From Erysipelotrichaceae bacterium MTC7 (GTDB lineage Bacteria; Bacillota_I; Bacilli_A; Erysipelotrichales; Erysipelotrichaceae): 32,000 nt of DNA. A program made the position numbers and the translations under genes. Each line of letters starts with the position of its first letter. The stretch's first letter is position 1. Positions 2,327 to 29,265 of this stretch are shown in pieces. The stretch lies in NCBI GenBank assembly GCA_001695645.1, contig LVZN01000011.1, positions 15,751-47,750 of the forward strand, read 5' to 3'. The notes beneath the pieces are model-generated. The model was not told the origin of the DNA, made no database searches, and saw only the letters and a list, made by a program, of their open reading frames with translations.

Positions 2327-2327
2327 T

Positions 2328-5956: not shown

Positions 5957-5987
5957 AAAAAAGGATTCTTCGCGAATCCTTTTTTTA
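5957..5987. terminator. Bidirectional terminator
   Basis: AAAAAGGATTC-TTCGC-GAATCCTTTTTTT between convergent genes (stops at 5955 and 5985). Confidence 0.8.
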
Positions 5988-6647: not shown

Positions 6648-6683
6648 GATAACCCTCTTTTTCTCTTTCAAGTATAGCAGTTC

Positions 6684-9688: not shown

Positions 9689-9700
9689 TTGAACCCTCTC

Positions 9701-10183: not shown

Positions 10184-10195
10184 AATATCTCCTTC

Positions 10196-11029: not shown

Positions 11030-11031
11030 AA

Positions 11032-11814
11032 TTAATCCTCCCATTCATCAACAACGTTTTGTTGAACTGCTGCAGGACTCTTTTGTTGTCCTGAACGAAG
11101 TAGAAATACCACCCATGCTATTGCAACCGCAATTGCTGTTACTGCTACCATTGTTAATTCTGTATATGCTGCAATCACGAATCCAATAACAAAGAAAGGA
11201 ATTAAATCTCTTTCCATGATAATGTTCATCAACAATGCAAATCCCATTGCAGGTAAGATTGAAGCAATTGCTTGTAATCCATTGTTTGCCCACTCAGGTA
11301 ATCCATTAACGATACTGTTAATCGCATCATTTCCAAAGTACATTACGATGAATGTCAAACCAAAATACAACAAGAATGTAAAGAATCCACATAAGTAGTG
11401 AATACTAATTGCACCTTTTAAATTTCCTTCATCAATTTTACGATCAGCTACAACCATCAATCCAGAGAATGCAGTTAATAGTAATGTGTTTAAGAATTGC
11501 ATAATTACTGCAACTGGTAAAGCAAATACAATTGCTGCTTCTGCCCCTTTCCCAGTCATAATTGCTACTGCAGCTCCAATTGTACCCCCTGTACCAATAT
11601 CGAGTTGAGCAGTTGGTCCAATTCCTGTTGCTCCCATCCACATCATTTGTAAAGCGGCACCAATCATTAATCCTTTTTCAACATCTCCAAGGATCATCCC
11701 TACTAGAAATCCGGTAATTACTGGTTCACGAAACTTCGCTTCACCAAGCCAACCACCTTCGAGTTGCGTCAATGCGGCCACACAACCAATTAATACTGCT
11801 TGAATTAGTGTCAT
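11032..11814 (-). CDS. PTS mannose-family EIIC
   Basis: 260-aa polytopic protein with a Gly-rich EIIC-Man pattern (GATGIGPTAQLDIGTGGTIGAA). RBS GAGGAGG. Confidence 0.9.
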   Translation of the reverse strand: MTLIQAVLIGCVAALTQLEGGWLGEAKFREPVITGFLVGMILGDVEKGLMIGAALQMMWMGATGIGPTAQLDIGTGGTIGAAVAIMTGKGAEAAIVFALPVAVIMQFLNTLLLTAFSGLMVVADRKIDEGNLKGAISIHYLCGFFTFLLYFGLTFIVMYFGNDAINSIVNGLPEWANNGLQAIASILPAMGFALLMNIIMERDLIPFFVIGFVIAAYTELTMVAVTAIAVAIAWVVFLLRSGQQKSPAAVQQNVVDEWED

Positions 11815-11853
11815 ACGTTTTCCTCCTCGTACATAACATGAAACACTGTGTTC

Positions 11854-11887
11854 ACAAATTGGTATATATTGGTATACCCTATATACC
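11854..11887 (-). promoter_or_regulatory. Putative GntR/HutC operator in the PTS operon promoter
   Basis: ACAAATTGGTATAT (11854-11867) is identical to 13294-13307. GGTATA-N15-TATACC (11861-11887) has the same geometry as the second site, with an internal GGTATACC palindrome (11871-11878). It lies 47-73 nt upstream of the IIC ATG. Confidence 0.6.
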
Positions 11888-11996
11888 TTTGATAATTAAT
11901 ATATACCACTATTTTTATTATATGACAAGTAAAAATGTGAAATTTTTGTGATTTTTAACGCAAATCATAAAAAACCAGCTAGATTTCTCTAACTGG

Positions 11997-12740
11997 CTAT
12001 CGTGTTTCATTGTTTTTTGCTTTTCTTGTAACATACCGAAATGATGTATATTCCGGTAAATGATAGGAAATGGTATACTCGATTAACCGATGGTCTTTAT
12101 CAAACCCAAAGTAGTCAAATAAGAATACATTTCGTGGTTTTTCTTCATGAAATAGTGATACATACATATCTGGTATTTTTGCAATTTTCAAATAAGAAAC
12201 AAGTTTGGAAGGACGATGTCCTTGTTCCTCCATATAATCATACAGAGACTCATCAACAAAATCAAAACGCTCTGCGTCTTTAAATAAATTACATGGAAAA
12301 TATGCTTTTTGTAAGGCATAAGGATTTCCGTTGATAAGCGACAACCGTACCAATTCGTATACAAATGCACTAGTTGGGAAGAAGTCATGCAATTCTTCTG
12401 TAGTTTTTATCTTTTGAAAAGATATAATTTCTCTTGATGGATGTAGACCTTTTTGGCGTATTTGACGCGTTAAACTAATAAGTTCATTTTCTCCAAGTTC
12501 AATCTTGCGGCTAACTACCGGAATCCCGCTGACAAAGGTTCCCCGACCTACTTCAGCTGATAGTATACGCTCTTGTTCTAGCAGTTTTATTGCTTTTCTA
12601 ACAGTCATGCGATTGATGCCGTATTGTACAGACATCATTCTTTCGCTTGGCAATCGATCGCCTAATGCAAGTTCACCATCCAATATCTTACTTTTAATAT
12701 TATCGGCCAATTGCTCATATAACGTACTTGGTTTATTCAT
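11997..12740 (-). CDS. GntR/HutC-family transcriptional regulator (wHTH + UTRA)
   Basis: N-terminal LPSERMMSVQYGINRMTVRKAIKLLEQERIL (GntR wHTH) followed by a UTRA-type effector domain. Confidence 0.9.
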   Translation of the reverse strand: MNKPSTLYEQLADNIKSKILDGELALGDRLPSERMMSVQYGINRMTVRKAIKLLEQERILSAEVGRGTFVSGIPVVSRKIELGENELISLTRQIRQKGLHPSREIISFQKIKTTEELHDFFPTSAFVYELVRLSLINGNPYALQKAYFPCNLFKDAERFDFVDESLYDYMEEQGHRPSKLVSYLKIAKIPDMYVSLFHEEKPRNVFLFDYFGFDKDHRLIEYTISYHLPEYTSFRYVTRKAKNNETR

Positions 12741-13257
12741 ATGGCATCACACTCCGAAAGCGATAAAAACTCGGTATCGCAATTAACTCAAAATACTCTA
12801 GTGGTGAAACATCATTGTCTGTATATGCTTTCCCTTTAATGAGTAATACTTCATTATCATCTTCTTGCAGTTCTAGAATCTCTTTCTCTTCTTCATTGGC
12901 TTCAACAATGAAAATCTCTTCTTCGCTTTTTGTGCTTTCTAATCCGTAAAGTTCTTTAATTTTGTCATAAAATGATTGATCTGTAAAATCGTGTTTCTCT
13001 ATCCCCGGTACTTTACGATAGTCGACATACGTCGTTTCAATGGATCGTGGTTTCCCTTCAACGATACGGATCTTCTTTAAGCAAAATACTTTTGATGCCA
13101 AGCTTAAACCCAACTGTTTACTAATCCGTCGATTGGCTTCTTGTACTTCACATATAAGAATTTTATAAGAGAAATGTAATCCTTGCGCTCGTATAGCATG
13201 CGTTACAGAGGAAAACTTATCCAACTCTTTTACTATATGTACATCTTCCATGTTCAT
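12733..13257 (-). CDS. Stand-alone UTRA-domain protein (GntR/HutC effector domain without DNA-binding domain)
   Basis: 174 aa. RBS AAGGAGG before ATG 13257. The sequence aligns by eye with the C-terminal UTRA half of HutC regulators (…KIRIVEGKPRSIETTYVDYRKVPGIE…) but has no wHTH. It overlaps the downstream GntR start by 8 nt. Confidence 0.65.
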   Translation of the reverse strand: MNMEDVHIVKELDKFSSVTHAIRAQGLHFSYKILICEVQEANRRISKQLGLSLASKVFCLKKIRIVEGKPRSIETTYVDYRKVPGIEKHDFTDQSFYDKIKELYGLESTKSEEEIFIVEANEEEKEILELQEDDNEVLLIKGKAYTDNDVSPLEYFELIAIPSFYRFRSVMPYE

Positions 13258-13795: not shown

Positions 13796-16366
13796 TTATT
13801 TGTGGTGTTTTGTCTTTTTCATCAGTTCGTAGCTACCAACGATAGCTGCACTTACCATAATTAGAATCAAAAGATTCATCGGATCGTTATGCACAAAACC
13901 AGTGATTGGTCCCGTACCAGGATCCACCGCGTCGTCATCAGGAGTCTTAGGTGTTTGTGGCACTTCAGGTGTCACTGTCCCAGGGGTTTCTCCTGGGTCA
14001 GGATTTGGCACATTCGGCTCAACTTGATTGGTTTCAACCGTATTCATAATTTCCACAACACTGTCAGATGTGATTGTCACAAACGATGTGTCATAGTCAT
14101 GTTCACCACTACCTGTATCAGCGGTATAACTTGTTTTGAATCCATCAGATGGCACTTGAACAACCTTAACTTGATAATTTTCTGGAATGGATGTAATCAC
14201 AATTGGTTCATCACTTGGTTTTAAAGTGAAGGTGATCATTCCATTTGCATCAGCAATCACCACTTGTCCATTTGCTAAGGTAACATATCCGGTCACAGGG
14301 TTTCCAGTTTCATCTTTTAGATACACTTGGATGTTGTAGCTATGGTCAGTTAGTGTGGGATTGCTGCTATCTGTTACTTCAGCAATGGTTAATGTATGAT
14401 TACTTACCACTGGAACATCTTTCCAGACTGCATCAATATGCAACACTTTGGCACCTGATATTTCCTGTAGAATAACTCCTTCTGGTAACGTATTTAAATT
14501 AAGTGTCTTTGTTACATCTACCCCAGGTTTGCTTGGGTCATTGTCTACTCGATACACAAATTTCACAAAGTCACTTCCTGGAAACTCAAATCCAACTTCC
14601 TTTATTGTAAGAATTGGTACGGTTGGCAACACTTCTTCTTCTGAATTTGTAACTGTATATGTAAACACTTGTGATTTTGTTGCTTCAAGAACTGCTGGAT
14701 TTCGTCCATGATATTTCACAATGATGGTTTTTGTCGTAATTGTTTCCTCTTCATCAAAGTTAATGTCCCAACTGTTCAAAGGGCTTTTTTGATATGCTTC
14801 TGTCACTCCACTTTGATCTGGTGATACGCCAGCAACTTCAAGTGGGATGTATTCTCGATATTTTTCAATGGCATTATTTGGTGTGAATTTAATATCTGCG
14901 ATATTATTTGCAAACGTTGTATCTCCAGCAATGTGCATGCGTGTATACATATTGTAAACTTCACCATCTATTTCTACTTCTGGATTGACATAAATCGCGC
15001 CTCCATCACCTTTATTTTCTGCTGAAGTTTTTGAATAGTTAGTTGTTGCTGTATTGTTGGTAAACGAACTACTACCATCAATAGTTACACTAGTTGCGCT
15101 ATCGATATACATCGCACCACCAAATTCTGCTTGACCACCATCAATAGAAAGACCGGTTGCTTTAAACACCGTATTCCCCGTGATGTAGATTCCTCCTCCA
15201 TAGGTTGCATTTTCTGTACTTGCAGATATATCACCTGAAGTTAATGCACTTTCTAGCTTTGAATCATGTATCGTAAAGTTCGAATCAACAATCATCATCG
15301 CTCCACCTTTAAATCCGATAGCCGGTGCAAGATGTGTACTTTTATTGTCGATGAATTTTGAGTTACTAATGCTCACATCTGATAATTTTGCATAAATGGA
15401 TCCACCAGATCCGCTGGCATGCGCATCACTGGTTTGCAAACCATCAATGTCCATTGACGTATTGATTACATGGAAATCTCCACCAGAAAGTGATGAATTA
15501 CTGTTTTCAATATTTATTTCTTTGATGCGAATCTGTGGAGTCGTTACTCCACTACGATTCAAATCACTATTATCAATGTAGAATACTCCACCGTTTCCAC
15601 TTGTTGCTATATTGGAAACCCTCATGTTTTCTAAACGAGCCGTAACATCCTTAAAGAAAAAAGCTCCATTGAAAGTTGCGGTTGTCGTATCTACAGTACT
15701 GTTTGCAATCTGGATATTATAGCTTCCAGCAGCAAGATCACTATACGACTTGCTATTGTCATAATAGATTGCAGAACCATGTCCACCATAGGTTGGAGTT
15801 GTTGCTTTTGTTTTGCGGAAACTCACCGTATCCAATTGAAGTTTTGCATTGTCATATGCTTCAATCGCTCCACCAAGCTTAGCGACTGTTTGATTGAACG
15901 TAACATTGTTTAATTCCAGTGATCCACCAGAGACATTTATCCCTCCGCTGTAGGAACTTGGGTCAGCAACATTGGCATCTCCAGTTAAAACGATTGTTCT
16001 ATCACTTGTCCCAAGTAGATGTAAACTTCCGTTTTTCGTCACGTAAAAGTGTCGTTTTCCAGGTACGGCTTTTAGTGTCAAGTTGAGTGCATCGGAAGCG
16101 TTTCGTATACTCACATCATGGTCAATCGTAATCGTCTCTTGTATTGGATTATAGAACATATCATTACTTGTAATTGCGATATTTTGTGCTCCAGATGCAA
16201 CTGCATTTTTTAGTTCTTCATAACTTGCTACAGATACCTCTGCCGCTGCGCTTACAACGGTGTTTCTTACGTTTGTTTGGGGATAGCTAAACCCTGATAA
16301 AAAGGCAAATACCAAAGCAGTTGCCACAAACAAACGCACACCTTTTCTTTTTTGTGAATATTTCAT
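13796..16366 (-). CDS. Secreted surface protein: signal peptide, Pmp-type (GGAI) right-handed beta-helix repeats, Ig-like (Cna-B/SpaA-like) domains, Pro-rich stalk, C-terminal TM anchor
   Basis: N-terminal signal peptide. Repeated GGAIEAY, GSAIYYD, GGVFYID, GGSIYAK, GGGIYIT, GGAMYID and GGAIYVN motifs. C-terminus EPNVPNPDPGETPGTVTPEVPQTPKTPDDDAVDPGTGPITGF...LLILIMVSAAIVGSYELMKKTKHHK. Confidence 0.8.
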   Translation of the reverse strand: MKYSQKRKGVRLFVATALVFAFLSGFSYPQTNVRNTVVSAAAEVSVASYEELKNAVASGAQNIAITSNDMFYNPIQETITIDHDVSIRNASDALNLTLKAVPGKRHFYVTKNGSLHLLGTSDRTIVLTGDANVADPSSYSGGINVSGGSLELNNVTFNQTVAKLGGAIEAYDNAKLQLDTVSFRKTKATTPTYGGHGSAIYYDNSKSYSDLAAGSYNIQIANSTVDTTTATFNGAFFFKDVTARLENMRVSNIATSGNGGVFYIDNSDLNRSGVTTPQIRIKEINIENSNSSLSGGDFHVINTSMDIDGLQTSDAHASGSGGSIYAKLSDVSISNSKFIDNKSTHLAPAIGFKGGAMMIVDSNFTIHDSKLESALTSGDISASTENATYGGGIYITGNTVFKATGLSIDGGQAEFGGAMYIDSATSVTIDGSSSFTNNTATTNYSKTSAENKGDGGAIYVNPEVEIDGEVYNMYTRMHIAGDTTFANNIADIKFTPNNAIEKYREYIPLEVAGVSPDQSGVTEAYQKSPLNSWDINFDEEETITTKTIIVKYHGRNPAVLEATKSQVFTYTVTNSEEEVLPTVPILTIKEVGFEFPGSDFVKFVYRVDNDPSKPGVDVTKTLNLNTLPEGVILQEISGAKVLHIDAVWKDVPVVSNHTLTIAEVTDSSNPTLTDHSYNIQVYLKDETGNPVTGYVTLANGQVVIADANGMITFTLKPSDEPIVITSIPENYQVKVVQVPSDGFKTSYTADTGSGEHDYDTSFVTITSDSVVEIMNTVETNQVEPNVPNPDPGETPGTVTPEVPQTPKTPDDDAVDPGTGPITGFVHNDPMNLLILIMVSAAIVGSYELMKKTKHHK

Positions 16367-16480: not shown

Positions 16481-16515
16481 AAAAAAACAGTCACTGGTTA
16501 TGCAGTGACTGTTTT
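16481..16515 (-). terminator. Strong rho-independent terminator of the RR-HK-GNAT operon
   Basis: 11-bp perfect stem AACAGTCACTG / CAGTGACTGTT with a 6-nt loop, followed on the minus strand by TTTTTTT. It abuts the GNAT stop codon. Confidence 0.85.
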
Positions 16516-16927
16516 ACACGCTTTGATTGAGATTGATAAAACCAATGCAATTGGCTTCTGCTAGAAAATGGAACCCTAGTTTCTTATAAAAGTTTCGATG
16601 CGTTTCATCATCTTCACTTATCAACACTTTTTGATAGCAGTTTTCATATTCTTTAAGGACAAGGTTCATTAGTTTTGTGGCTAATCCTTGTCGTTGATAG
16701 TCTGGATGAACTAATAAATCTTGGATATAAATAATCGATATTCCATCACCGATGACACGAATAGTCGCAACAAGTTTATCGTTGTCACGAAGCGTATAGA
16801 CACAAAGTGCCTGTTTGTAGCAGTGGTGAATATTCTTTACTTTCTCCATGTAGAAATCCCATCCCACCTGTTTGTAAAGTTCAACAAGTTCTGCTTGTGT
16901 AGGAATAAAATTCTTTTCTAAATTCAT
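16514..16927 (-). CDS. GNAT-family N-acetyltransferase (137 aa)
   Basis: ATG 16927 preceded by AAGGAGG. Acetyl-CoA motif A is present (HPDYQRQGLATKLM). It lies 13 nt downstream of the kinase stop. Confidence 0.8.
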   Translation of the reverse strand: MNLEKNFIPTQAELVELYKQVGWDFYMEKVKNIHHCYKQALCVYTLRDNDKLVATIRVIGDGISIIYIQDLLVHPDYQRQGLATKLMNLVLKEYENCYQKVLISEDDETHRNFYKKLGFHFLAEANCIGFINLNQSV

Positions 16928-16940
16928 GGTGCCTCCTTTG

Positions 16941-18776
16941 CTACTGTTGATGAATTGGCAATTGTAAATGAATCGTATATGTCGATGGACTTTCTTTAAC
17001 ATCCATGCGGCCTTGATGAATTTCAATCACTCGTTCCATACTTTTTAGTCCAATTTGATTGCTTTCTACATGATGTTTACTTGCAATCTTGTTTTCAAAC
17101 ACAAGATGAACATATCCTTTTTTTACTTCAATTAAGATAAGGACAGGCGCATCTTTACTTGCATACTTTTGAATATTCGAGAAAATGTTATCAAATGCTC
17201 GTTTCAATAATAGCAGGTTCATGTTAATAACAAGGGATGCATCGAACTGCACTTGTTTATACACTTGATATCCCTCATGTTCTAGCAATCCACATTCTTC
17301 ATTTACATAGGCATAAAGGTTGGCAAATGGTGTTGCAACAAGTTCTGCATGCTCTTGTTTTCCATAGACCAAGAAATAGGAAAACATTTCATCTGAAAGA
17401 CTGCGAATCTGTTCAACTTTTGCCAAGGATTTATCCAAATACTCAGCATTCTTTTCTGGGTCTTTTTGGTATTTTATGATTTCCAAATAACCCAGCAAGG
17501 AAGTTAGTGGTGTGCGTAAGTCATGTGAGATTGAAGTAATTAAATCACGGTTGGATTGTTGCAAGGCTTCCTCATTCGCTAACGTGTCAATAAATGATTT
17601 ACGCATCATGTTTACATCATTAGCCAACTGTGCAACCTCATCAGTTCCATCAATCACTACTTCATGATGCAAGTTTCCATCTGCAAGGATACCAATATCT
17701 TCTTGCATCTTGCGTATTTGTGTAACTTTGTATTGCATAAAATTTAACAAGATTATCATATAGATCAACACTGCAGTTAGCACGATAGCTATTTGAAAGG
17801 GATAAACTAATGATAGCAGTGGGTAATAATAAAACGTTAAGGTGTAAAGTTGATTTGCATTTTGCACATGCAAAGATTGCACCATCGGTGTTGAAATCAC
17901 TTGTACCCCTTGTTCGTAGACTTCAAATTCATTGTAACGATTGTACGTCGCTATATGCGAGCGATCCTCATCAAAGATATCAACTCCTGTATTGGTTGGG
18001 GCGATGGATTGCAATATTTTTGTAATGTCTTTGTATTCCAATGTACTGATATCAACATCCAAAAACGTGTCTTTAACCTTTTGCTCATCAACCTCAATCA
18101 TCGTGTTATAGACGTGATTGAACATAAACTCATAGAAGGCATATTTGTTTTGGTTAGCCAACGTATAAAAGCCTAGACCCAGGCTTATCGCTAATAGGTT
18201 CACTGTGACCAGTTGAACAGACAGACGATGAAGTACTTTCCATTTACACATGCGATTTGTTAGTGTGCGAATCCAACCATTTCGATAATTACAAGTTAGT
18301 AGAATGTAACAAGCAATTCCAACTAGTAAACTAACAAACGCCACAAGCATTGCGTATGTCGCAAACAATTCGCGAAAGTTTGGCCAGCTGATTAAGATAC
18401 ACGCTTCTTGACCAACATGCAATGCATACTCTCTTTCATATCGCGCTTGAAATAATTGCGATTCATTCGGCCATATTTCACTTAACAAGAAAACCTCAAA
18501 ATCCGAGCCTAGTAGTTGAACTGCATAATCAGGAAAATCTTCATTTAAATAATGATTGATTTTTTCTTGATCCTTGTAGTTTTTGAGATCCAAATCGATG
18601 ACTTTCTGTTGCAAAACTTCAATTCGCTTTTCACTTATTTCGATACGTTGCTCTGTCATCTGGTTCGTAACACGCAAGACATCATAACGAACTGCATAGA
18701 GAAAAAAGAAACAACAAATACTCATAATAAAACAAACCAGTGCACGGACACACTTACGTAGATTACTTGATTGCAT
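16941..18776 (-). CDS. Sensor histidine kinase with four TM helices and two ~100-aa extracytoplasmic loops
   Basis: H-box SISHDLRTPLTSLLGYLE, a HAMP-like linker and a C-terminal HATPase region. Start chosen at ATG 18776 (MQSSNLRK), which overlaps the regulator stop by 14 nt. Confidence 0.85.
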   Translation of the reverse strand: MQSSNLRKCVRALVCFIMSICCFFFLYAVRYDVLRVTNQMTEQRIEISEKRIEVLQQKVIDLDLKNYKDQEKINHYLNEDFPDYAVQLLGSDFEVFLLSEIWPNESQLFQARYEREYALHVGQEACILISWPNFRELFATYAMLVAFVSLLVGIACYILLTCNYRNGWIRTLTNRMCKWKVLHRLSVQLVTVNLLAISLGLGFYTLANQNKYAFYEFMFNHVYNTMIEVDEQKVKDTFLDVDISTLEYKDITKILQSIAPTNTGVDIFDEDRSHIATYNRYNEFEVYEQGVQVISTPMVQSLHVQNANQLYTLTFYYYPLLSLVYPFQIAIVLTAVLIYMIILLNFMQYKVTQIRKMQEDIGILADGNLHHEVVIDGTDEVAQLANDVNMMRKSFIDTLANEEALQQSNRDLITSISHDLRTPLTSLLGYLEIIKYQKDPEKNAEYLDKSLAKVEQIRSLSDEMFSYFLVYGKQEHAELVATPFANLYAYVNEECGLLEHEGYQVYKQVQFDASLVINMNLLLLKRAFDNIFSNIQKYASKDAPVLILIEVKKGYVHLVFENKIASKHHVESNQIGLKSMERVIEIHQGRMDVKESPSTYTIHLQLPIHQQ

Positions 18777-19470
18777 CAAAGGTATACCCCTTTCCCCAAA
18801 CGGTTTTAATGTACGTTGGATGTTGTGGGTCATCATGAATTTTCTTTCTTAGATTTCGCATGTGAACCATCACGGTATTACTGGCACTTTGATAAAAATC
18901 CTCCTGCCAAACGGATGTGAAAATGTGCTGGATGGAGAATACTTGTCTTGGGTGATTCACCAATAAATGTAGGATTTTATATTCGATTTCCGTGCATTCA
19001 CAATCCTTGCCAGCAAGCAGTACTTTTTGACTTGCTTCATCAATCACCAATTGCCCAAAGACAAGTTGTTTATATTCTGTACTTGGACTTTCTTTTCCTT
19101 GATAGACGTAATAGCGACGCAATAGTGCTTTTACTCTTGCGGTTAGTTCATTATAAGAAAATGGCTTTGTTAAATAGTCATCTCCACCACTTGAAAATCC
19201 AAGTGTTTTATCACTTTCTGCACCCTTTGCGCTTAAAAACAAAATGGGTGCTTTACTTATTTGACGGATTTGTTGACAAGCTTGATAGCCATTGCAATCA
19301 GGCATCATAATATCAAGAATGAGCAAATCAACATCTTGACTACATTTCTCGATGGCTTCATTTCCATCTTTTGCTTCAATAACTTCATAACCTTCACTAG
19401 ATAAAAGTACGCGAATGACTTCGCGTATTTCTTGATGGTCGTCTGCAACTAGTATTTTTGTGTTTTTCAT
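18763..19470 (-). CDS. OmpR/PhoB-family response regulator
   Basis: Receiver domain (KILVADDHQEIREV, DLLILDIMMPD, LSAKG) plus a winged-helix output domain (TYIKTVWGKGYTF). Start at 19470 (MKNTKILVADD) is preferred over 19509; neither has a Shine-Dalgarno. Confidence 0.85.
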   Translation of the reverse strand: MKNTKILVADDHQEIREVIRVLLSSEGYEVIEAKDGNEAIEKCSQDVDLLILDIMMPDCNGYQACQQIRQISKAPILFLSAKGAESDKTLGFSSGGDDYLTKPFSYNELTARVKALLRRYYVYQGKESPSTEYKQLVFGQLVIDEASQKVLLAGKDCECTEIEYKILHLLVNHPRQVFSIQHIFTSVWQEDFYQSASNTVMVHMRNLRKKIHDDPQHPTYIKTVWGKGYTFDAIK

Positions 19471-19509
19471 AATTTTATTATACACAAAGATGTTTTCGAT
19501 TTCCTTCAT

Positions 19510-19560
19510 TTAAGAATTAATTAAGAATTCTTAAGAATTACTTTATCCGATTCTTAAGAA
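19510..19560. promoter_or_regulatory. Array of TTAAGAAT repeats in the divergent promoter region, a candidate response-regulator binding site
   Basis: TTAAGAAT at 19510-19517, 19521-19528 and 19531-19538 (spacing 11 and 10 bp). TTCTTAAGAA at 19551-19560. AATTCTTAAGAATT (19526-19539) is a perfect palindrome. Confidence 0.6.
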
Positions 19561-19589
19561 GTTTTTGTCATACTATACACGAGGTATTT

Positions 19590-22007
19590 ATGAGAAAACA
19601 CAAAAACTATTTGTATGTATGCATCTTTGTCTTTGCATGCATACTTCCCTTTTTCTTACATGAAAATTCAACGCTTTTTGGTTCTACAACCGATTACGCG
19701 AATCAACATATCCAAATCGCAAAGGCAATTCGTCAAGCCGTCTATGACCAGGGGTTGTTTCCAACGTTTATGGAACAATTAGGAGCCGGTCAAAACATTT
19801 ATAACTTTTCATATTACGGCTTGTTTCGTTTGGACATTCTTTTGTCTTTACTTTTACCTAGTGTTGATATGTACATCATCATTTCAAGTTATATGGTGAT
19901 CAGCTATGCCATTAGCTTATGTTTGTTTTACAAACTGCTGTGTGAACATCATTGTCGCTGGAACATCGCCTTATGCACAACCATCATGTTTGCCTTGTCC
20001 TCGTACCTTTTTCAACTACATCGTCAGATTCTTTTCGTCAATTACATGCCATTTTTACTACTTTCCTTGCTTGTAATCAAAAAAAGTAAACCCCTGTGGT
20101 TGCTTGTCCCTTTATTTGTGATGATCATCTTACACAGTTTCTTTTTCAGCATCAGTTGTGCACTTGTTCTTGGCTTGTACTATTTGTATTGCAACCAAAA
20201 TCAATTACAGCCTAGAAAACTATTTATGTTTGCTTGCATGATTGCTCTTGCATATCTTCTTAGTGGTTTTTATCTGTTACCAACAGGTCTAGCAATTCTT
20301 GCGAATAGTCGTTTTGATGGCACACAAGAAGGGCTTGCACTATACAACTTTAGCTTCAACAATTTGTTATATGACAAATATGGCATGGGTTTGTCCTACC
20401 TTTCCCTTATTTGCTTGTATCTTGGTTTAAAAGATCGAAATCTTAGAAAACTTGTAGGTATCATTTTCATGATTCTCATGGTACCTGCGATTTCTTTAGT
20501 TTTAAACTGTGGACTTTATGTACGACCTAAGGTGCTCATCCCATTTCTTCCACTCATTTTGCTACTTGTTGGACAAGTGTTAACCAAGGTTGCACAAAGA
20601 GAAATTCAGATACACATCTATGACGTTCTTCCTTTAGCAATTCCACTTGTGATCAATCATTCACCAACCATAATGGTTCTAGATGCACTCTGTAGTTTCA
20701 GTGTGATATGTCTGATGTACTACCGTAAAAAAGCAGTGTATGTACAACTTTCACTATTCACTATGGTTTCGGTCATGCTAACTAATAACCACAGCGAAAC
20801 CTATGAGAAAAAAAGTACCTATCAAAAGCTCACAACGTTGGAACAAGATCCCTTACTTTCTACCTTGGATACTAAAAACTATCGATTGGAAGATATTCGA
20901 TTTGCTTCAACAAGTGTAAATACAGCACTCACAGACATCAAACGTACAACCATGTACACCAGCATCAACAATACTACCTACAACAAGTTTTTCTATGACA
21001 CGATGTTGCAAGCGATACCCAGTCGCAATCGTGTGATTACCAGTTATCAAGAACATCCCATCTTTGCCAATCTCATGGGTATTCGCTATCTTTACACAAC
21101 AAGTGATCACATCCCTTTTGGATACGATGTATATGCCAAAGCCAATGGTGGTACGGTGTTAGAAAACAAACAAGTTCGACCCATTGCCTATGGAACCAGT
21201 CAACTGCTTAGTGAAAAGACATTTCAAAAACTTACCCCAGAGAAACAAATCAACGCTTTACAAAACTACGTGATTACAAAGGAAAGCAACCATACCAAAA
21301 CGCAGCTTGTTGCAAAAGAAATGGACCTACAATACACACTTACAAAGCAAAGTAACAATTTGCATGTTACCAAAACAAAGACTGGTTTTTCCATACAAGC
21401 CAAAAAGAAAAGCAACATGACCTTACAGTTAGAGACACCTTGTCGTGACTTGCTTATGCTTTCTTTTGATGTGAAAAACATTTCCAATATCAACAAACAA
21501 GATCTTACCATTGAAATCAATGGTGTACGAAACAAACTATCTAGTTTGCGCGCAGCGTATCCAAACAAAAACCATCGCTTTACCTATATGCTTAGCGATG
21601 CCAAAGAAATCAGTGAATTGCAACTTAGTCTATCCAAAGGGACGTATGACATCACCAATTTGAAAATATATCAGCTTCCCGCATCTACACCATTCAACTT
21701 AACACCACTTAACCTTACAACATCTTCAAACGTACTTGAAGGAACCATCAACATGGAAGATGATGGAATGTTTGTGACAAGTATCCCAATGCAAGCTGGC
21801 TTTAGCTTACGTGTAGATGGAAAAAAACAAACCATTGAAACAGTCAACACAACATTTGTAGGATGCAAACTGAGCAAAGGTAACCACCATATCGAACTGC
21901 AATTTGAACCACCAGGTCAACAACTTGGTAGTTTGATGAGTTGTTTTGGCATCCTAATTTTTATTTGTGTATACATTTTTGAAAGGAAACATCAATATGA
22001 ACATTGA
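19590..22007 (+). CDS. yfhO: YfhO-family polytopic membrane glycosyltransferase (GT-C-like)
   Basis: 805 aa. Many N-terminal TM helices, a large C-terminal extracytoplasmic domain and a terminal TM. The N-terminal FGSTTDYANQHIQ region and the overall layout match the YfhO family as I recall it. Confidence 0.75.
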   Translation: MRKHKNYLYVCIFVFACILPFFLHENSTLFGSTTDYANQHIQIAKAIRQAVYDQGLFPTFMEQLGAGQNIYNFSYYGLFRLDILLSLLLPSVDMYIIISSYMVISYAISLCLFYKLLCEHHCRWNIALCTTIMFALSSYLFQLHRQILFVNYMPFLLLSLLVIKKSKPLWLLVPLFVMIILHSFFFSISCALVLGLYYLYCNQNQLQPRKLFMFACMIALAYLLSGFYLLPTGLAILANSRFDGTQEGLALYNFSFNNLLYDKYGMGLSYLSLICLYLGLKDRNLRKLVGIIFMILMVPAISLVLNCGLYVRPKVLIPFLPLILLLVGQVLTKVAQREIQIHIYDVLPLAIPLVINHSPTIMVLDALCSFSVICLMYYRKKAVYVQLSLFTMVSVMLTNNHSETYEKKSTYQKLTTLEQDPLLSTLDTKNYRLEDIRFASTSVNTALTDIKRTTMYTSINNTTYNKFFYDTMLQAIPSRNRVITSYQEHPIFANLMGIRYLYTTSDHIPFGYDVYAKANGGTVLENKQVRPIAYGTSQLLSEKTFQKLTPEKQINALQNYVITKESNHTKTQLVAKEMDLQYTLTKQSNNLHVTKTKTGFSIQAKKKSNMTLQLETPCRDLLMLSFDVKNISNINKQDLTIEINGVRNKLSSLRAAYPNKNHRFTYMLSDAKEISELQLSLSKGTYDITNLKIYQLPASTPFNLTPLNLTTSSNVLEGTINMEDDGMFVTSIPMQAGFSLRVDGKKQTIETVNTTFVGCKLSKGNHHIELQFEPPGQQLGSLMSCFGILIFICVYIFERKHQYEH

Positions 22008-22395
22008 TAAAGAGTTAGTAAAGTACATTCTTAATGGAGGTCTTACCACCGGAGTTAATTATGTTGTGTATTTTACTTTGACGCATCTACACATGCACTA
22101 TCTACTTGCCAACAGCATTGCCTGGGTAGTCGCTGTCTTGGTTGCTTTTTACACCAATCGCCGTTGGGTCTTTAAGTCAAGTGAAGCACCAACAAAACAG
22201 TTCGTAAGCTTTGTATCCTTGCGCGCAAGTACCTTGCTTGTCGAAAACGGCTTACTGTATATCTTCATTCAGCTTTTCGCATGTGCTAGTTTACCTGCAA
22301 AAATTGCGGTAAGTATCTTTACCATCATTGCCAATTATGCGATTTGTAAAACGAAAATATTTATAAAAGGAGAACCGACTTATGGAAACAATTAG
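21997..22395 (+). CDS. GtrA-like small membrane protein (putative polyprenyl-phosphate-sugar flippase)
   Basis: 132 aa, 4 TM. LVKYILNGGLTTGVNYVVYF ... NRRWVFKS pattern of the GtrA family. ATG 21997 preceded by AAAGGAAAC; overlaps yfhO by 11 nt. Confidence 0.8.
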   Translation: MNIDKELVKYILNGGLTTGVNYVVYFTLTHLHMHYLLANSIAWVVAVLVAFYTNRRWVFKSSEAPTKQFVSFVSLRASTLLVENGLLYIFIQLFACASLPAKIAVSIFTIIANYAICKTKIFIKGEPTYGNN

Positions 22396-23311
22396 TGTTA
22401 TCGTTCCGTGTTATAACGAAGAAGAATCCATTCCTCACTTTTATGAGGAAACAAGAAAAGAACTTTTGAAAATTGAACATACGAATTACGAATTCATTTT
22501 TGTGAATGACGGAAGTAGTGACCAAACCATACATGAAATCAAATTGTTAACACTGCAAGATCCATGTTGTCATTACCTTTCCTTTTCACGAAACTTCGGA
22601 AAAGAATCGGCCATGTTTGCAGGACTACAACGAGCTAGCGGTGATTATTGTGTCATTATGGATGCAGACTTGCAACATCCACCGACCTTACTAAAAGATA
22701 TGTATCATGTCTTAAAATATGAAAACTACGATTGTGCTGCAGGAAAGCGAATGGACCGCACGGGTGAAGGTGGTATGCGAAACTTTCTTTCCAAACAGTT
22801 TTACAAAGTCATCAGTGCATTGACGAAAATGGACATGAGTGATGGTTCTGGTGATTTTCGGATGATGCGTCGTGTCGTGGTTGATGCCATTTTGGAAATG
22901 AAAGAATACAACCGATATATGAAAGGTATTTTCTCGTTTGTTGGATTTGATACCAAGTGGTTGGAATTTCACAACGTTGAACGAGTTGCTGGACAAACGA
23001 AATGGAGTTTAAAGAGTTTATTTGCTTATGCATTTGAAGGCATTTTATCGTTTTCAACCAAACCGTTGTTGCTTGCTGGTATTGTTGGTATGTTGCTATT
23101 TGCCCTTTCAACTATTCTAGGTCTTAGTATTGTGGTGCGCTTATGCTTACAAGAAAGTATCTCTGCATCCTTTTACTTACTTACCGCTCTTGTGTTTTTG
23201 AGTAGTTTGCAAATGATCTTTGTGTCCATTTTGGGACAATACATTTCCAAAGATTATTTGGAAAATAAAAAACGTCCAATTTACATCATCAAAGAAAGTG
23301 ACAATGCATGA
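22382..23311 (+). CDS. GT2 polyprenyl-phosphate glycosyltransferase (GtrB/CsbB/ArnC-like)
   Basis: ISVIVPCYNEEESI, VNDGSSD, DADLQHPP (DXD), then two C-terminal TM helices. Confidence 0.85.
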   Translation: METISVIVPCYNEEESIPHFYEETRKELLKIEHTNYEFIFVNDGSSDQTIHEIKLLTLQDPCCHYLSFSRNFGKESAMFAGLQRASGDYCVIMDADLQHPPTLLKDMYHVLKYENYDCAAGKRMDRTGEGGMRNFLSKQFYKVISALTKMDMSDGSGDFRMMRRVVVDAILEMKEYNRYMKGIFSFVGFDTKWLEFHNVERVAGQTKWSLKSLFAYAFEGILSFSTKPLLLAGIVGMLLFALSTILGLSIVVRLCLQESISASFYLLTALVFLSSLQMIFVSILGQYISKDYLENKKRPIYIIKESDNA

Positions 23312-23934
23312 TTGCTAAAATACTAGTTGCTCTCACGCTATGTTTGCAAAGCATTCCTAGCCTTAAGCCAATCGAACAAAAAAGTTTGATGATTGTTGCA
23401 CATCCAGATGATGAATCCATTTTCGCAGGTGATGAAATTCGTAAACAATCCTACATGATTGTCTGTTTAACCAATGGTGATCATCCCACACGTCGTAAAG
23501 AATTTCAGCAAATGTTAAAAGAAACCAACAATACGGGGATCATTCTTTCCTTTCCAGATAAAGTCCATGGTAAACGTAGCACTTGGTCGATGCAACAACA
23601 TGAGATAGAAGCTTCCATCGAGAGTTACATAAGCATGTATCCTTGGAAAAAAATCGTAACGCACAATCCCAAAGGTGAGTATGGTCATCAACACCATAAG
23701 CTTACCAACCAAATGGTAACAACCATTGCTACACAACATAACCTAGAACAAAAACTGTATTACTTTTCCTACTTTACCCACAAGCAAAAACCAACCTATA
23801 AAAAACAGTTAAATAAAGAAGAACGACAAGCCAAACAGAAACTATTGGAAGTGTATGCTTCCCAAAAGAAAACCGTTCACAAATTCGATCACTTTATCGA
23901 ATATGAACGGCTTGTTCCTTATCGTAATTTTTGA
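23308..23934 (+). CDS. PIG-L/LmbE-family deacetylase with a hydrophobic N-terminal segment
   Basis: MIVAHPDDESIFAGDE and GEYGHQHH zinc-site motifs. N-terminal MIAKILVALTLCLQSIPSL looks like a signal peptide or anchor. ATGA start/stop overlap with the GT2 gene. Confidence 0.8.
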   Translation: MIAKILVALTLCLQSIPSLKPIEQKSLMIVAHPDDESIFAGDEIRKQSYMIVCLTNGDHPTRRKEFQQMLKETNNTGIILSFPDKVHGKRSTWSMQQHEIEASIESYISMYPWKKIVTHNPKGEYGHQHHKLTNQMVTTIATQHNLEQKLYYFSYFTHKQKPTYKKQLNKEERQAKQKLLEVYASQKKTVHKFDHFIEYERLVPYRNF

Positions 23935-25265
23935 AACAATTGTTGAATCTCGTCTTTCCTTTGCGCATCTAGTTTTTCTAGATGCTTTTTTAAAATTGGA
24001 TGCCAGTCACGCCCACTTTCCAATTTCTGCAAACATTTTGCATCAAGCGTTGGTGTTTGTTGAAACAAGAACTCTTCTGGATATACATAACGAACAAGTA
24101 GCGCTAGTGTCAAACTATCGAGTTGTTGGAAGTATGCAAGATACTCCGACTTTGTAAATATTGACATATCTAGTATATCCAAAACATCATGAATGGATAG
24201 TTTAGAGTTTTGCAACAGTTCGATTTTATCTTTACAATCTTGTACTCCTTTGATCTGCTCAACCACTTGTAAAAACGTATCGTTGTCTATGACATGATCA
24301 ACTTGAAACTTTACTTGTTGTGTTTCTTGTACCTTGTAAATGATGAGTTGATCTAAGCTTTGATTTTGGATTCCAATTTCAAGTTCAAGTAGAAAACGCG
24401 CTTGAAACCGTAGACTGTACTGATACGTTGCTTCATCAACAAGCGTGGCAAAACGTTGATATGCAATGTTCACACATGTTGCGGCATCTTGTATTTTCAA
24501 GACAAGAAAACGTACTTCCGTCTCACTAAAAAGTAATTGGTTTGCATGTGGCAGTAAACAGGCAAAGAGTTGTTGGCGTAACAGTAATTCCATCACATTC
24601 AAACCCAAGACATGAATGCTAACGCCTTTTTGTCTTTCATACCAAGCAACTAGTGTTTTCATTTGGGCTTCGTAGCGATTACAAAAACATTGTTCAAGAT
24701 AGAAACGATTGGCATACTCGCATGCCAAGTCCAGTCCTTGCAAGCCATACATGTGATGATCCAAAGCAAGTCCATCCAACAAGGGATAATCAAAGTCTTC
24801 TTTACATAAAGTTGCTTTGTAGGTCATGTCATAACCTTCAAGAAAGGTAAAGAATTGTCTGTGCACAACATCAAGATATCGTTCATTTTCCACTGGCAAG
24901 CGTTCGCATTTTATTTGCAATGCTTGATGTTGCAACGCTTTCATTTGTTGTTCCAATATAACGATACCTTGTTGGTAATATTCATAGATACGATCAGCTT
25001 GCAATAAACGCGGATCATCTTTGTATGTTTGTACATGATCCAAGGCATAAATCACACTGCGATAGATGTTTTTATACACATAAGTTGAGACGGTTGAACT
25101 TTTCTTTTGATTGTAGCTTATAACAAGCTTGGCAGTAATGTCTTGTAACACCTCTTTGATTGCTTGCACAGCTTCTTCACTTAGAAGTTTGGCTTGTTGA
25201 AGCTGCTTTAGCAAGCTAAGAAAAGAGATCGACTTATGCTTTGTTGAAATGAGTTGATTCATCAT
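23919..25265 (-). CDS. Hypothetical protein, 448 aa, helical, no catalytic motif recognised (possibly the family annotated DUF6179)
   Basis: Long clean ORF. ATG 25265 preceded by GGTGAGGG and overlapping the upstream stop (ATGA). The family name is from memory only. Confidence 0.6.
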   Translation of the reverse strand: MMNQLISTKHKSISFLSLLKQLQQAKLLSEEAVQAIKEVLQDITAKLVISYNQKKSSTVSTYVYKNIYRSVIYALDHVQTYKDDPRLLQADRIYEYYQQGIVILEQQMKALQHQALQIKCERLPVENERYLDVVHRQFFTFLEGYDMTYKATLCKEDFDYPLLDGLALDHHMYGLQGLDLACEYANRFYLEQCFCNRYEAQMKTLVAWYERQKGVSIHVLGLNVMELLLRQQLFACLLPHANQLLFSETEVRFLVLKIQDAATCVNIAYQRFATLVDEATYQYSLRFQARFLLELEIGIQNQSLDQLIIYKVQETQQVKFQVDHVIDNDTFLQVVEQIKGVQDCKDKIELLQNSKLSIHDVLDILDMSIFTKSEYLAYFQQLDSLTLALLVRYVYPEEFLFQQTPTLDAKCLQKLESGRDWHPILKKHLEKLDAQRKDEIQQLFQKLR

Positions 25266-25666
25266 TTTGCCCTCACCTGTTGGATACACGCATATACCAT
25301 TTCACTATGTATTTCACCAAAGTTAGCAAGATAGTGTTGATATAATAATGCAACCAGTTGCTCATCGTATAGCGTGGCTTTGATGTATTGACGAGTTGCA
25401 TAATACGCATGCATAAAATCAGCAATACGTTCCACAAAATCATCTTGTCGAATATATGGAGAACTCGCGAGTGTTGTTGCAATTGTATATACGATTTGAT
25501 GATTGATATCAACCAGTGAAAACTGATGACAACTTTGTTTTTGTCGCTTACATAAATAACGAATATCTTTTGCACGCAATTGATGTCCAGCAAGTGCAAT
25601 TTCTTGATTTGTCGCTTCAAGTTGTGCAAGCTGTTGTTGGTTTAAATGTTGTGGTGTTTGTATCAT
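25262..25666 (-). CDS. Hypothetical protein, 134 aa (possibly the family annotated DUF6323)
   Basis: ATG 25666 preceded by ACGGAGGG. Upstream promoter TTGTCA-17 nt-TATAAA. Translationally coupled to the 448-aa gene. Confidence 0.55.
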   Translation of the reverse strand: MIQTPQHLNQQQLAQLEATNQEIALAGHQLRAKDIRYLCKRQKQSCHQFSLVDINHQIVYTIATTLASSPYIRQDDFVERIADFMHAYYATRQYIKATLYDEQLVALLYQHYLANFGEIHSEMVYACIQQVRAK

Positions 25667-25763
25667 ACATGCCCTCCGTTTCTTCTTTATACGCCTGTTT
25701 ACACACCATGACAAGTCTTGAAAAAAGTACCAAAATGTGGTAATATAACTATATAAATGAAGC

Positions 25764-25810
25764 AAAAAAGTAGAGCTTTTTTCCCAAGCAGGAAAACCCT
25801 CTACTTTTTT
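25764..25810 (-). terminator. Terminator after the histidine phosphatase gene
   Basis: AAAAAGTAGAG...CTCTACTTTTT long hairpin with an inner TTTTCC/GGAAAA extension, flanked by A and T runs. Confidence 0.7.
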
Positions 25811-28188: not shown

Positions 28189-29265
28189 TTATTGTTGAAG
28201 CGGTGAAAACTTAGCATCAAAAACTTGCATGTAGTATGTGTTTTCATCTTCAAGCAAACGCAATGCTGCTTCTTTATCAACAACTAACCGAAGACCATAA
28301 ACTTTTGATGCATGATGTTCAATGTTTTCCACTTCTTTGTTAATGACACCAATCATGTATTGCCCACTAATCACTCGATTGAGAAATTCGCTGTGATCTT
28401 TTAATAAGGTAAGCGAACTCTTGTATGTTTCTTGTAAACCTGCTGCTGAATAGGTGATGCCGCCACATAAGCCTGGATACGACTTTGAACAGACTTCTGT
28501 ATATGTCATGGTTGAAAAGCCAATGGTCTGGCTACCATGAATTGCAGTCGCAAAATACTCAACATTAGCTTCCAATGAGCGTTCCGTAATGTATTGCACA
28601 ATTTCATCAAAATCCATAGGTTTGACAAAGGAAACGGTTGTATCAACTAAAGCTGAATCCGGTAATTCTACTAGATCTTTTTTCAACTGTTCATCATGCA
28701 TACGTTTTTCCGTAGCAGACAGTTCATATCTTTTTTCTTCCGCCTGCTCTTCTACTTCTTTCACATAAAACTGATTCATTACGTATGATACATTCAAATC
28801 GATTCGATCATGGTTGACTTTAATCGTTGTATCCGGTGCTCCATACACACTTGTTTCTAAATAAGAATAATAGGAACCATAATACTCATAAGACCCATAA
28901 CCAAGATTTTTATATGCGCTATCACCAAACAACGGCATGTAGCGAACACCTGGATTTGCAACCGAGATGTAAACAGCGATGAGTTGTTGAAAATCATTTT
29001 GCATTTCTTCACTTCCATCCACATCGGGGTATTCATTGTAATATCCTTCAATTTTTTCACTGCGTGGATTGTAGTTTGTTGCTTCTTTAAGTTTTCCAAA
29101 GCCAAAGTAACCAGCACCAATCAGCAATGCGATAACCAGTGTATACACAACCATCCGTTTTAGAAAACTTTGATTCATTCCACGTTTAATTTTTTTAAAC
29201 GTCCGTTGATCAACATGTGGTTCTTCCAACGACAATAAGTTATCTAGTTTTTTATCTTCATTCAT
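28189..29265 (-). CDS. Anti-sigma factor-like single-pass membrane protein
   Basis: Short cytoplasmic N-terminus, one TM (MVVYTLVIALLIGAGYFGFG) and a ~290-aa extracytoplasmic domain. ATGA overlap with the upstream ECF sigma gene. Confidence 0.65.
   Translation of the reverse strand: MNEDKKLDNLLSLEEPHVDQRTFKKIKRGMNQSFLKRMVVYTLVIALLIGAGYFGFGKLKEATNYNPRSEKIEGYYNEYPDVDGSEEMQNDFQQLIAVYISVANPGVRYMPLFGDSAYKNLGYGSYEYYGSYYSYLETSVYGAPDTTIKVNHDRIDLNVSYVMNQFYVKEVEEQAEEKRYELSATEKRMHDEQLKKDLVELPDSALVDTTVSFVKPMDFDEIVQYITERSLEANVEYFATAIHGSQTIGFSTMTYTEVCSKSYPGLCGGITYSAAGLQETYKSSLTLLKDHSEFLNRVISGQYMIGVINKEVENIEHHASKVYGLRLVVDKEAALRLLEDENTYYMQVFDAKFSPLQQ

Follow-up and report, generated by a model that had tools for sequence, protein, structure and literature searches.

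A candidate two-component-controlled YfhO/GtrA/GT2 surface-glycosylation operon carrying a predicted exported PIG-L de-N-acetylase in Erysipelotrichaceae bacterium MTC7

Comparison with described systems

In Bacillus subtilis, the CsbB/YfhO system places N-acetylglucosamine (GlcNAc) on lipoteichoic acid (LTA) (PMC5836110). Here we describe a 32-kb stretch of DNA from Erysipelotrichaceae bacterium MTC7 (the window, whose numbering is used for all positions), in which a YfhO-family glycosyltransferase, a GtrA-like protein and a family 2 glycosyltransferase (GT2) are encoded in one operon with a PIG-L/LmbE-type deacetylase (100% identical to A4S06_09385), divergently from an operon for a two-component system (TCS). 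We read this locus as a three-component module for surface glycosylation that is under TCS control and has gained an exported de-N-acetylase, with a rough probability of 0.55.

The same three families are found in B. subtilis CsbB–YfhO (with GtcA), in Listeria GtlA/GtlB and in Lmo2550/GtcA/Lmo1079, which share the logic of synthesising a sugar linked to undecaprenyl phosphate (C55-P), flipping it and transferring the sugar outside (PMC5836110). An earlier note on this DNA, made from the sequence alone, had recognised this established three-component route, and the core of the operon does equal a CsbB/GtcA/YfhO-type system, with a YfhO protein that is just distantly related to the characterised members. 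The note had also placed both the deacetylase and the TCS outside the described module. For the deacetylase this holds, as CsbB/YfhO-type systems are described without one (PMC5836110). For the TCS it holds in part: these systems have no adjacent dedicated TCS and csbB-yfhO is under σX/σB, but TCS control has a partial precedent in B. subtilis ykcBC, which belongs to the YclJ/YrkP regulon without being adjacent to those regulators (PMC5836110).

The gene logic had further been likened to the Arn pathway and to Francisella NaxD. Arn (ArnC/ArnD/ArnEF/ArnT under PmrAB), Lgm and Francisella FlmF2/NaxD/FlmK each combine, under TCS control, a GT2 and a GT-C enzyme with a de-N-acylase and a small flippase, and all of them install a cationic amino sugar on an anionic envelope polymer. 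ArnD belongs to CE4 and NaxD is of the YdjC type, and in all three pathways deacylation takes place on the cytoplasmic side before flipping. The acceptor in the Arn, NaxD and Lgm systems is lipid A and the GT-C enzyme is of the ArnT family, whereas the window encodes a YfhO and would serve a different acceptor. Moreover, unlike the Arn and NaxD deacylases, the window deacetylase matches PIG-L alone in Pfam, not CE4 or YdjC, and is predicted to be exported (Pfam matches were judged by gathering thresholds and NCBIfam matches by equivalog cut-offs throughout). The mirror image thus fails on topology and homology, the window enzyme being a PIG-L (CE14) protein. The overall logic is still similar to that of all three pathways, among them Bordetella LgmABC(D) under BvgAS: as proposed for the window, they represent amino-sugar decoration of an envelope polymer under TCS control (PMC4993483).

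Known PIG-L/LmbE enzymes, namely eukaryotic PIG-L, MshB, BshB and diacetylchitobiose deacetylase, share with the window protein the fold and the AHPDD(E)/HxxH residues, and have in common the hydrolysis of an N-acetylglucosaminyl amide. The window protein is 13-21% identical to them, with TM-scores (template modelling scores) of about 0.5-0.6. MshB, BshB and the chitobiose deacetylases work in the cytoplasm, whereas the subfamily of the window is predicted to be exported and is often fused to wall-binding modules. In Mycobacterium tuberculosis, PpgS–Rv3632–Rv3779 comprise a GT2 that forms polyprenyl-phosphate N-acetylgalactosamine, a GtrA-like partner and a GT-C enzyme, and place galactosamine (GalN) on arabinogalactan. 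The free amine of this GalN implies a de-N-acetylation step, for which we know of no identified deacetylase. This system differs from the window in its GT-C family and in its acceptor; the NCBIfam PpgS model matches in the window with 31.6 bits.

The closest functional precedent for conversion of GlcNAc to glucosamine (GlcN) outside the cell on a Gram-positive wall polymer is PplD (PDB 6DQ3). PplD de-N-acetylates GlcNAc of the streptococcal wall polysaccharide extracellularly and protects against cationic host proteins; like the window protein, it is N-terminally anchored and is an extracellular zinc de-N-acetylase that makes GlcN (PMC8807736). PplD has a D-H-H metal triad, is not a PIG-L protein and has the rhamnopolysaccharide linkage unit as its site of action; the passages of its description that were consulted mention no tie to a YfhO/GtrA/GT2 operon or to a TCS (PMC8807736). 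A homology between PplD and the window PIG-L was considered and rejected on this triad and on the absence of 6DQ3 from the sequence and fold matches, leaving PplD as a functional analogue only. Its triad is presumably of the CE4 type. A literature search returned no paper joining YfhO with PIG-L or LmbE. The slpA locus of Clostridioides difficile holds an uncharacterised LmbE-like gene, CD2790. In Clostridium innocuum, another of the Erysipelotrichaceae, the type III LTA may bear both GlcN and GlcNAc substituents; the reading of the window does not draw on this.

Active site, fold and predicted export of the PIG-L protein

The PIG-L protein matches PF02585 with 53.3 bits (cut-off 28.2, E 5e-14) over profile positions 1-128 of 129. 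Its AHPDDE (H32, D34, D35) and GHQHH (H127, H130) motifs align with H13/D15/D16 and H144/H147 of MshB, and these five residues are invariant across 37 homologues, so that the zinc-site motifs described in the earlier note are indeed intact. An AlphaFold2 model of the protein reached a pLDDT (predicted local distance difference test) of 93.9, and a Foldseek search with this model retrieved MshB, archaeal diacetylchitobiose deacetylases and GalB at probability 1.0, E of about 1e-6 and TM-scores of 0.5-0.62. Only LmbE-fold enzymes were found among the significant PDB neighbours, with a diacetylchitobiose deacetylase as the top match.

An assignment to the cytoplasmic thiol-biosynthesis type of MshB and BshB was rejected, since the NCBIfam MshB model scored 21.7 bits against a cut-off of 224.35, BshB gave no match and the protein carries export signals. 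The earlier note had named clustering with such bacillithiol/mycothiol-type enzymes as what would speak against its proposal, and these scores point the other way. Hydropathy analysis detected the hydrophobic N-terminus that had been noticed before as a single segment at residues 1-19, consistent with a signal or anchor. A basic and hydrophobic leader is present in every one of the 37 aligned homologues that is not N-terminally truncated, and several homologues have classical lipoboxes, e.g., LLLSGC and VLGC.

An exhaustive profile search collected 279 subfamily clusters (50% identity, E≤1e-30), many of which are long and have PIG-L as their C-terminal domain. In ten members that were scanned, PIG-L lies behind a signal peptide combined with choline-binding repeats, three CWB2 domains, a ricin lectin plus Big_2, or Big_2; in one member, PIG-L comes after a GT2 domain on the cytoplasmic side and one transmembrane segment. 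These fusion architectures locate the catalytic domain of PIG-L on the outer side of the membrane and speak for glycans of the wall as its substrates. Together with the leaders and lipoboxes they answer the call for a topology check made in the earlier note: the protein is, by these predictions, exported and belongs to a distinct subfamily apart from the MshB/BshB type. The fusions also suggest a wider family of uncharacterised secreted de-N-acetylases acting on cell-surface glycans.

Fusion proteins of the subfamily are exemplified by P0124, P0155, P0171, P0181 and P0188, which include a GT2, transmembrane, choline-binding and PIG-L arrangement and ricin-lectin/Big_2-PIG-L proteins of up to 1190 aa. 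In locus L055 (8990-10597), PIG-L follows choline-binding repeats. In locus L077 (8456-10570), a DUF6056 domain with 11 segments precedes PIG-L in the same protein, and the gene lies in a cluster that also encodes a TagGH-like ABC exporter and, twice, a TagF-like glycerophosphotransferase. The possibility that DUF6056 is a YfhO-like GT-C was discarded after hhalign comparison of the YfhO profile with this part of the L077 protein (probability 0.7%).

Gene-neighbourhood census

For the forward census, 80 genome loci with PIG-L relatives were collected from Breznakia, Massilicoli, Thomasclavelia, Holdemanella, Absicoccus, Lachnospiraceae, Ruminococcus, Eubacterium and Blautia, and the neighbouring genes were identified by iterated hidden Markov model searches. 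In 53 of the 80 loci, which span Erysipelotrichales, Lachnospiraceae and Ruminococcus, PIG-L and YfhO were no more than 300 bp apart, where about 1 would be expected from the density of YfhO elsewhere in those loci, and YfhO was located within 5 kb in 58; several of the remaining 22 loci end next to PIG-L. The pairing in the window is therefore not that of accidental neighbours. Other partners were less frequent: GT2 in 22 loci, GtrA in 16, a histidine kinase (HK) in 15, a response regulator (RR) in 13 and a GNAT acetyltransferase in 1. When all genes lying up to 6 kb to either side in the same loci were clustered without bias, YfhO, GT2, GtrA, RR and HK emerged as the sole conserved partners.

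The commonest arrangement, in about 32 loci, has PIG-L upstream of YfhO and overlapping it, and other loci have YfhO followed by PIG-L, a divergent pair or a convergent pair. In Holdemanella-type loci, PIG-L→RR→HK is divergent from YfhO→GtrA→GT2, with PIG-L as the first gene of the regulator operon, and one Ruminococcus locus reads RR→HK→PIG-L→YfhO. The adjacency of PIG-L and YfhO has thus outlasted at least four rearrangements, which argues for a functional link between the two. The PIG-L→RR→HK order was observed in L016, L019, L020, L027, L021, L025, L007 and L008 (about 9.7-13.1 kb each), from Holdemanella, Absicoccus and related genomes; judging from gene order, the deacetylase in these loci would thus be co-transcribed with its own presumed regulators.

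For the reverse census, the 80 closest YfhO relatives on metagenome contigs were examined, with 29-34% identity to the window YfhO. Their neighbours comprised GT2 in 58 loci, HK in 30, RR in 29, GtrA in 16 and PIG-L in 11 (adjacent in 8); the RR and HK counts are upper bounds, because some of these matches are PhoU-linked Pho systems. The deacetylase would therefore be dispensable for the core module. Across both censuses two conserved units can be distinguished, PIG-L+YfhO and TCS+GT2(+GtrA)+YfhO, and the window joins both. PIG-L is an optional accessory, given that TCS+GT2+YfhO is common without PIG-L and PIG-L+YfhO is common without a TCS.

Among the metagenome loci, L091-L110 and similar contigs contain a GT2 gene that overlaps YfhO, while GtrA and PIG-L are both absent from the vicinity, an arrangement that is very common in the human gut. 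In L132-type loci, a Pho-like PhoU-RR-HK set is located directly upstream of GT2→YfhO.

Two-component system and control region

The RR passes as an OmpR/PhoB-type protein, with Response_reg and Trans_reg_C in Pfam. In the HK, HisKA is above the Pfam threshold, while HAMP (22.4 bits, threshold 25) and HATPase_c (19.9 bits, threshold 26.4) are below it. The four transmembrane segments ascribed to the kinase in the earlier note were recovered by hydropathy, and they enclose two extracytoplasmic loops, which are about 105-115 aa long and carry a net charge of -9 each. The mature PIG-L domain has a net charge of +7; the acidic kinase loops and the basic PIG-L would fit cation sensing and anionic-polymer binding, a fit that is no proof. 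A VanRS identity was rejected by NCBIfam scores (VanR-F/M 247 bits against 460; VanS 76 against 400). At least 25 other loci have, next to a YfhO module, an RR that shares 55-68% identity with the window RR, and the sensor region of the kinase is 21-28% identical to those of the kinases of L001, L002 and L016-type loci.

The divergent control region is rich in short repeats. The sequence TTAAGAATT occurs there in three exact copies (19510-18, 19521-29 and 19531-39) with a spacing of 11 and 10 nt, ATTCTTAAGAA occurs twice (19527-37 and 19550-60), and five of the eight matches to TTAAGAAT in the whole window lie in one 48-bp stretch of the control region. In 11 orthologous control regions totalling 1,353 bp, the TTAAGA/TCTTAA hexamer was counted 43 times, compared with 2.4±1.6 in shuffles, and the density of TTAAGA in control regions was 41-fold that in the rest of the same loci. 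The box is also present upstream of module-linked regulators in loci without PIG-L.

On the yfhO side, the proximal TTAAG (19554-58) is situated 10 nt upstream of a -10 hexamer, CATACT (19569-74, preceded by TG), which is followed by GAGG at 19581-84. This 10-nt gap between the proximal box and the -10-like hexamer is kept in 8 of 9 loci. Such geometry is that of a pho box standing in for the -35 element. On the RR side (19470-19486, minus strand), a -10 element TATAAT (19482-19477) is contained in the extended -10 TGTGTATAAT and ends 6 nt before the ATG at 19470, with no Shine-Dalgarno sequence upstream of this start. Because the -10 lies so close to the ATG, the RR mRNA may be leaderless. 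Loci of Breznakia, Massilicoli and Thomasclavelia share the TGTATAAT -10 as a conserved element, while L001 has instead a normal leader with a ribosome-binding site.

These patterns suggest that the TCS is dedicated to the YfhO-type module. The earlier note had presented the divergent TCS and PIG-L as two additions to GT2/GtrA/YfhO. Both are conserved additions, as the RR identities and the TTAAGA boxes indicate for the regulators, but PIG-L is an optional one, as seen in the reverse census.

Glycosyltransferase core

YfhO matches PF09586 with 161 bits (cut-off 28.5, E 5e-47) over profile positions 8-835 of 835, and hydropathy indicates at least 8 N-terminal transmembrane segments, one C-terminal segment and a large C-terminal domain on the outside. 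A PDB sequence search with YfhO found no solved relative. The protein is presumed to be an extracytoplasmic transferase that uses a C55-P-sugar. GtrA matches PF04138 over the full profile (82.8 bits, cut-off 26.1, E 2.7e-23) and is a presumed flippase for the lipid-linked sugar; a crude hydropathy scan detected 2 transmembrane segments at its threshold, where the family expectation is 4.

The GT2 protein matches PF00535 (117 bits, E 8.5e-34), has a DAD motif in 'VIMDADLQHPP' and has C-terminal transmembrane segments by hydropathy at 221-239 and 266-284. It aligns over residues 4-304 with the solved Synechocystis GtrB 5EKP (E 3e-60) and over its full length with ArnC (E 1e-35), while the NCBIfam ArnC score of 144 bits is below its cut-off. 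The full-length match to GtrB and ArnC therefore places it among the C55-P-sugar synthases of the GtrB/CsbB/ArnC class. GT2, GtrA and YfhO are encoded together and translationally coupled in the window, and the trio is present in 16 of the 80 PIG-L loci and in 16 of the 80 YfhO loci.

Proposed mechanism and alternatives

In the mechanism that we propose, the GT2 would work on the cytoplasmic face and make a C55-P-linked N-acetylhexosamine (HexNAc), for which GlcNAc is the most likely sugar; the matches above show the class of the enzyme, and the sugar is the conjectural part. GtrA would help to shift C55-P-HexNAc to the outer leaflet, as its family membership suggests, and YfhO would move the sugar to an acceptor on the outside, which is probably a glycopolymer of the envelope, similar to teichoic acid or of another kind. 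The membrane-tethered PIG-L would then de-N-acetylate outside, acting most likely on the polymer-bound sugar and leaving a hexosamine (HexN) with a free, protonatable amine. The polymer-bound sugar is favoured as substrate because of the wall-binding and lectin fusions of the subfamily. Regarding control, the cis-elements suggest that the phosphorylated OmpR-type RR binds the TTAAGAAT boxes, the proximal one at the place of the -35 element, activates yfhO-gtrA-gt2-pigL and may also autoregulate the divergent RR-HK operon. More speculatively, the kinase, with its two acidic outside loops, could sense an envelope or cationic signal.

The earlier note had left two options for the deacetylation, on C55-P-HexNAc or, outside, on the polymer after transfer. 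As PIG-L is exported, deacetylation would take place outside the membrane, which effectively excludes the inner leaflet, where Arn and NaxD have this step.

Several observations weigh against this mechanism. The exported PIG-L subfamily is without a biochemically characterised member, the sugar specificity of the GT2 cannot be deduced from sequence, and the acceptor is ambiguous, since YfhO-family enzymes serve LTA, wall teichoic acid and proteins. Genes for LtaS, Tag and LCP proteins were not among the conserved neighbours in the unbiased clustering of the 80 PIG-L loci. About a quarter of the PIG-L relatives have no YfhO nearby, and PIG-L accompanies only the 11 of 80 closest YfhO relatives counted above. 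The lineages compared are non-independent, many of the metagenome loci being near-duplicates, and the promoter and box assignments are made from sequence patterns alone.

Among the alternatives, the one that survives best, although we judge it unlikely, is that PIG-L acts on the lipid carrier on the outer leaflet, making C55-P-GlcN from flipped C55-P-GlcNAc so that YfhO transfers GlcN; the Arn/Lgm/NaxD logic would in this case be moved to the outside. The founding eukaryotic PIG-L deacetylates a lipid-linked substrate, N-acetylglucosaminyl phosphatidylinositol; the window PIG-L is short and membrane-tethered; in the commonest layout its gene directly precedes and overlaps yfhO; and in L077 PIG-L is fused to a polytopic membrane domain. 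Many members of the subfamily are, however, fused to cell-wall-binding or lectin modules, which would hold the enzyme on polymers and not at the bilayer.

Quite improbable, in our estimate, is a Pgf-like protein O-glycosylation in which HexNAc or HexN is placed on surface proteins, such as the adjacent 856-aa Pro/Thr-rich wall-anchored protein. The best NCBIfam match of the GT2 is indeed PgfS (299 bits, E 4e-89), the C-terminus of YfhO has a weak NCBIfam similarity to PgfM1/M2, and the surface protein with its Thr/Pro-rich stalk is encoded 150 bp past the TCS operon. These scores are nevertheless far under the equivalog cut-offs (299 against 500 for PgfS; 49 against 1400 and 52.3 against 1500 for PgfM), and the operon has neither a PgfE epimerase nor a second PgfM, so that membership of the Pgf machinery was rejected. 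Furthermore, none of the 80 loci has the surface protein as a conserved neighbour, by which its candidacy as a conserved glycosylation target also falls, and the PIG-L fusion within the TagF/TagGH-like cluster of L077 points to teichoic-acid-type polymers.

That PIG-L is co-regulated with the YfhO product but acts elsewhere, de-N-acetylating or deacylating GlcNAc of peptidoglycan, the linkage unit of a polymer in the manner of PplD, or oligosaccharides from the host or from chitin, is the least probable reading: it would suit the relatives without YfhO nearby, the many free-standing multidomain secreted enzymes with lectin modules and the inclusion in CE14 of diacetylchitobiose deacetylases, the top Foldseek match, but co-regulation alone hardly explains an adjacency, often with overlapping genes, kept through at least four rearrangements, and the neighbour clustering offers no further conserved partner.

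Implications of a proposed regulated surface de-N-acetylase

With the module read as surface glycosylation followed by de-N-acetylation outside, what is new is the joining of an exported CE14 de-N-acetylase to a regulated three-component glycosylation module that was already known. The PIG-L–YfhO pair appears to be widespread in gut Firmicutes and undescribed. Gram-positive surface charge is usually put down to D-alanylation (Dlt) and MprF. More recently, PplD has added de-N-acetylation of GlcNAc in the wall polysaccharide as a further means of tuning charge (PMC8807736).

If the proposed mechanism is true, it would provide a new means of resistance to host cationic peptides, lysozyme-like proteins and phages in abundant gut commensals. 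It would also give a function to the uncharacterised exported CE14 subfamily, with its 279 clusters (50% identity, E≤1e-30), and define a TCS, a DNA box and an operon unit for envelope-stress sensing in Erysipelotrichaceae. A bolder extension, which we put forward tentatively and with the odds against it, is that YfhO–PIG-L represents a widespread, undescribed and Dlt-independent route to free amines on envelope glycopolymers in gut Firmicutes (Erysipelotrichales, Lachnospiraceae and Ruminococcus), in which glycosylation precedes extracellular de-N-acetylation. In Erysipelotrichaceae, the TCS with acidic sensor loops would then detect cationic peptides or cations and act via a conserved TTAAGAAT regulon box, as a functional Gram-positive counterpart of PmrAB-Arn or BvgAS-Lgm that deacetylates on the outside.

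Locus organisation and neighbouring genes

The features of the two operons are listed in Table 1. A check of open reading frames (ORFs) and junctions placed all seven ORFs and their overlaps exactly as the earlier note had them: 11 nt for yfhO/gtrA, 14 nt for gtrA/gt2 and 4 nt (ATGA) for gt2/pigL on the plus strand, and 14 nt for RR/HK on the minus strand. Its picture of two coupled operons diverging from one control region is borne out by these overlaps and by a terminator-like hairpin at the end of each, and its family identities agree with Pfam matches above the gathering thresholds, except for HAMP and HATPase_c of the kinase. The intergenic length of 119 bp assumes that the RR starts at MKNTK (19470). 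The longest RR ORF would begin at 19509, but the start at 19470 is favoured because the conserved -10 element sits downstream of the ATG at 19509. An Rfam scan of the window detected no RNA elements.

Table 1. Features of the divergent regulatory and glycosylation operons, in window numbering
Feature	Position	Strand	Description
GNAT acetyltransferase	16514-16927	minus	137 aa; Pfam Acetyltransf_7/10/1; third gene of the TCS operon
Sensor histidine kinase (HK)	16941-18776	minus	611 aa from ATG at 18776; Pfam and hydropathy
OmpR/PhoB-type response regulator (RR)	18763-19470	minus	235 aa; Response_reg and Trans_reg_C
Shared divergent control region	19471-19589	between operons	119 bp
YfhO-family membrane glycosyltransferase	19590-22007	plus	805 aa; Pfam YfhO
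GtrA-like small membrane protein	21997-22395	plus	132 aa from ATG at 21997; Pfam GtrA_DPMS_TM
GtrB/CsbB/ArnC-class GT2	22382-23311	plus	309 aa; Glycos_transf_2
PIG-L/LmbE (CE14) predicted zinc de-N-acetylase	23308-23934	plus	208 aa; Pfam PIG-L
Terminator-like hairpin followed by T-run	23965-23985	plus	31 nt past the PIG-L stop; end of the glycosylation operon
Terminator-like hairpin, 13-bp stem, followed by T-run	16515..16484	minus	at the GNAT stop; end of the TCS operon

The ATG of the GNAT gene (16927) is located 14 nt past the HK stop, behind a strong AAAGGAGG ribosome-binding site. The earlier note had counted this gene in with the regulators, but it is third in the TCS operon of this genome only, and with a GNAT near PIG-L in just 1 of 80 loci it is not conserved and is probably a passenger rather than a part of the system.

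Beyond the TCS operon, with a start 150 bp away, lies the gene for the 856-aa surface protein (13796-16366, minus strand), a possible glycoprotein with a signal peptide, long Gly/Asn/Ser-rich repeats, DUF7601 and a Pro/Thr-rich stalk. At its C-terminus, a 'GPITGF' motif, then a stretch of hydrophobic residues and last KKTKHHK as the tail make it look like a protein with a sortase sorting signal. On the other side, a DUF6179 (456 aa) and DUF6323 (167 aa) pair (23919-25765, minus strand) is convergent to the glycosylation operon; the 3' ends of DUF6179 and PIG-L overlap by 16 nt, and the plus-strand terminator-like hairpin is situated inside the DUF6179 coding sequence.

Further away, a catabolic island (5985-13257, minus strand) encodes a GntR/UTRA regulator, a second, UTRA-only ORF, the IIC/IID/IIB/IIA components of a mannose-family phosphotransferase system, an EamA transporter, two HAD phosphatases and a protein with a SIS domain. 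Its gene content resembles that of a locus for the use of amino sugars or ketoamines, and nothing evident ties it to the glycosylation module. Additionally, the window includes an extracytoplasmic function (ECF) sigma factor gene with a putative anti-sigma partner (28189-29759, minus strand; weak Sigma_reg_C match) and a MarR regulator gene followed by two fused ABC exporter genes (1889-5955, plus strand), both of which are typical envelope-stress or efflux units.

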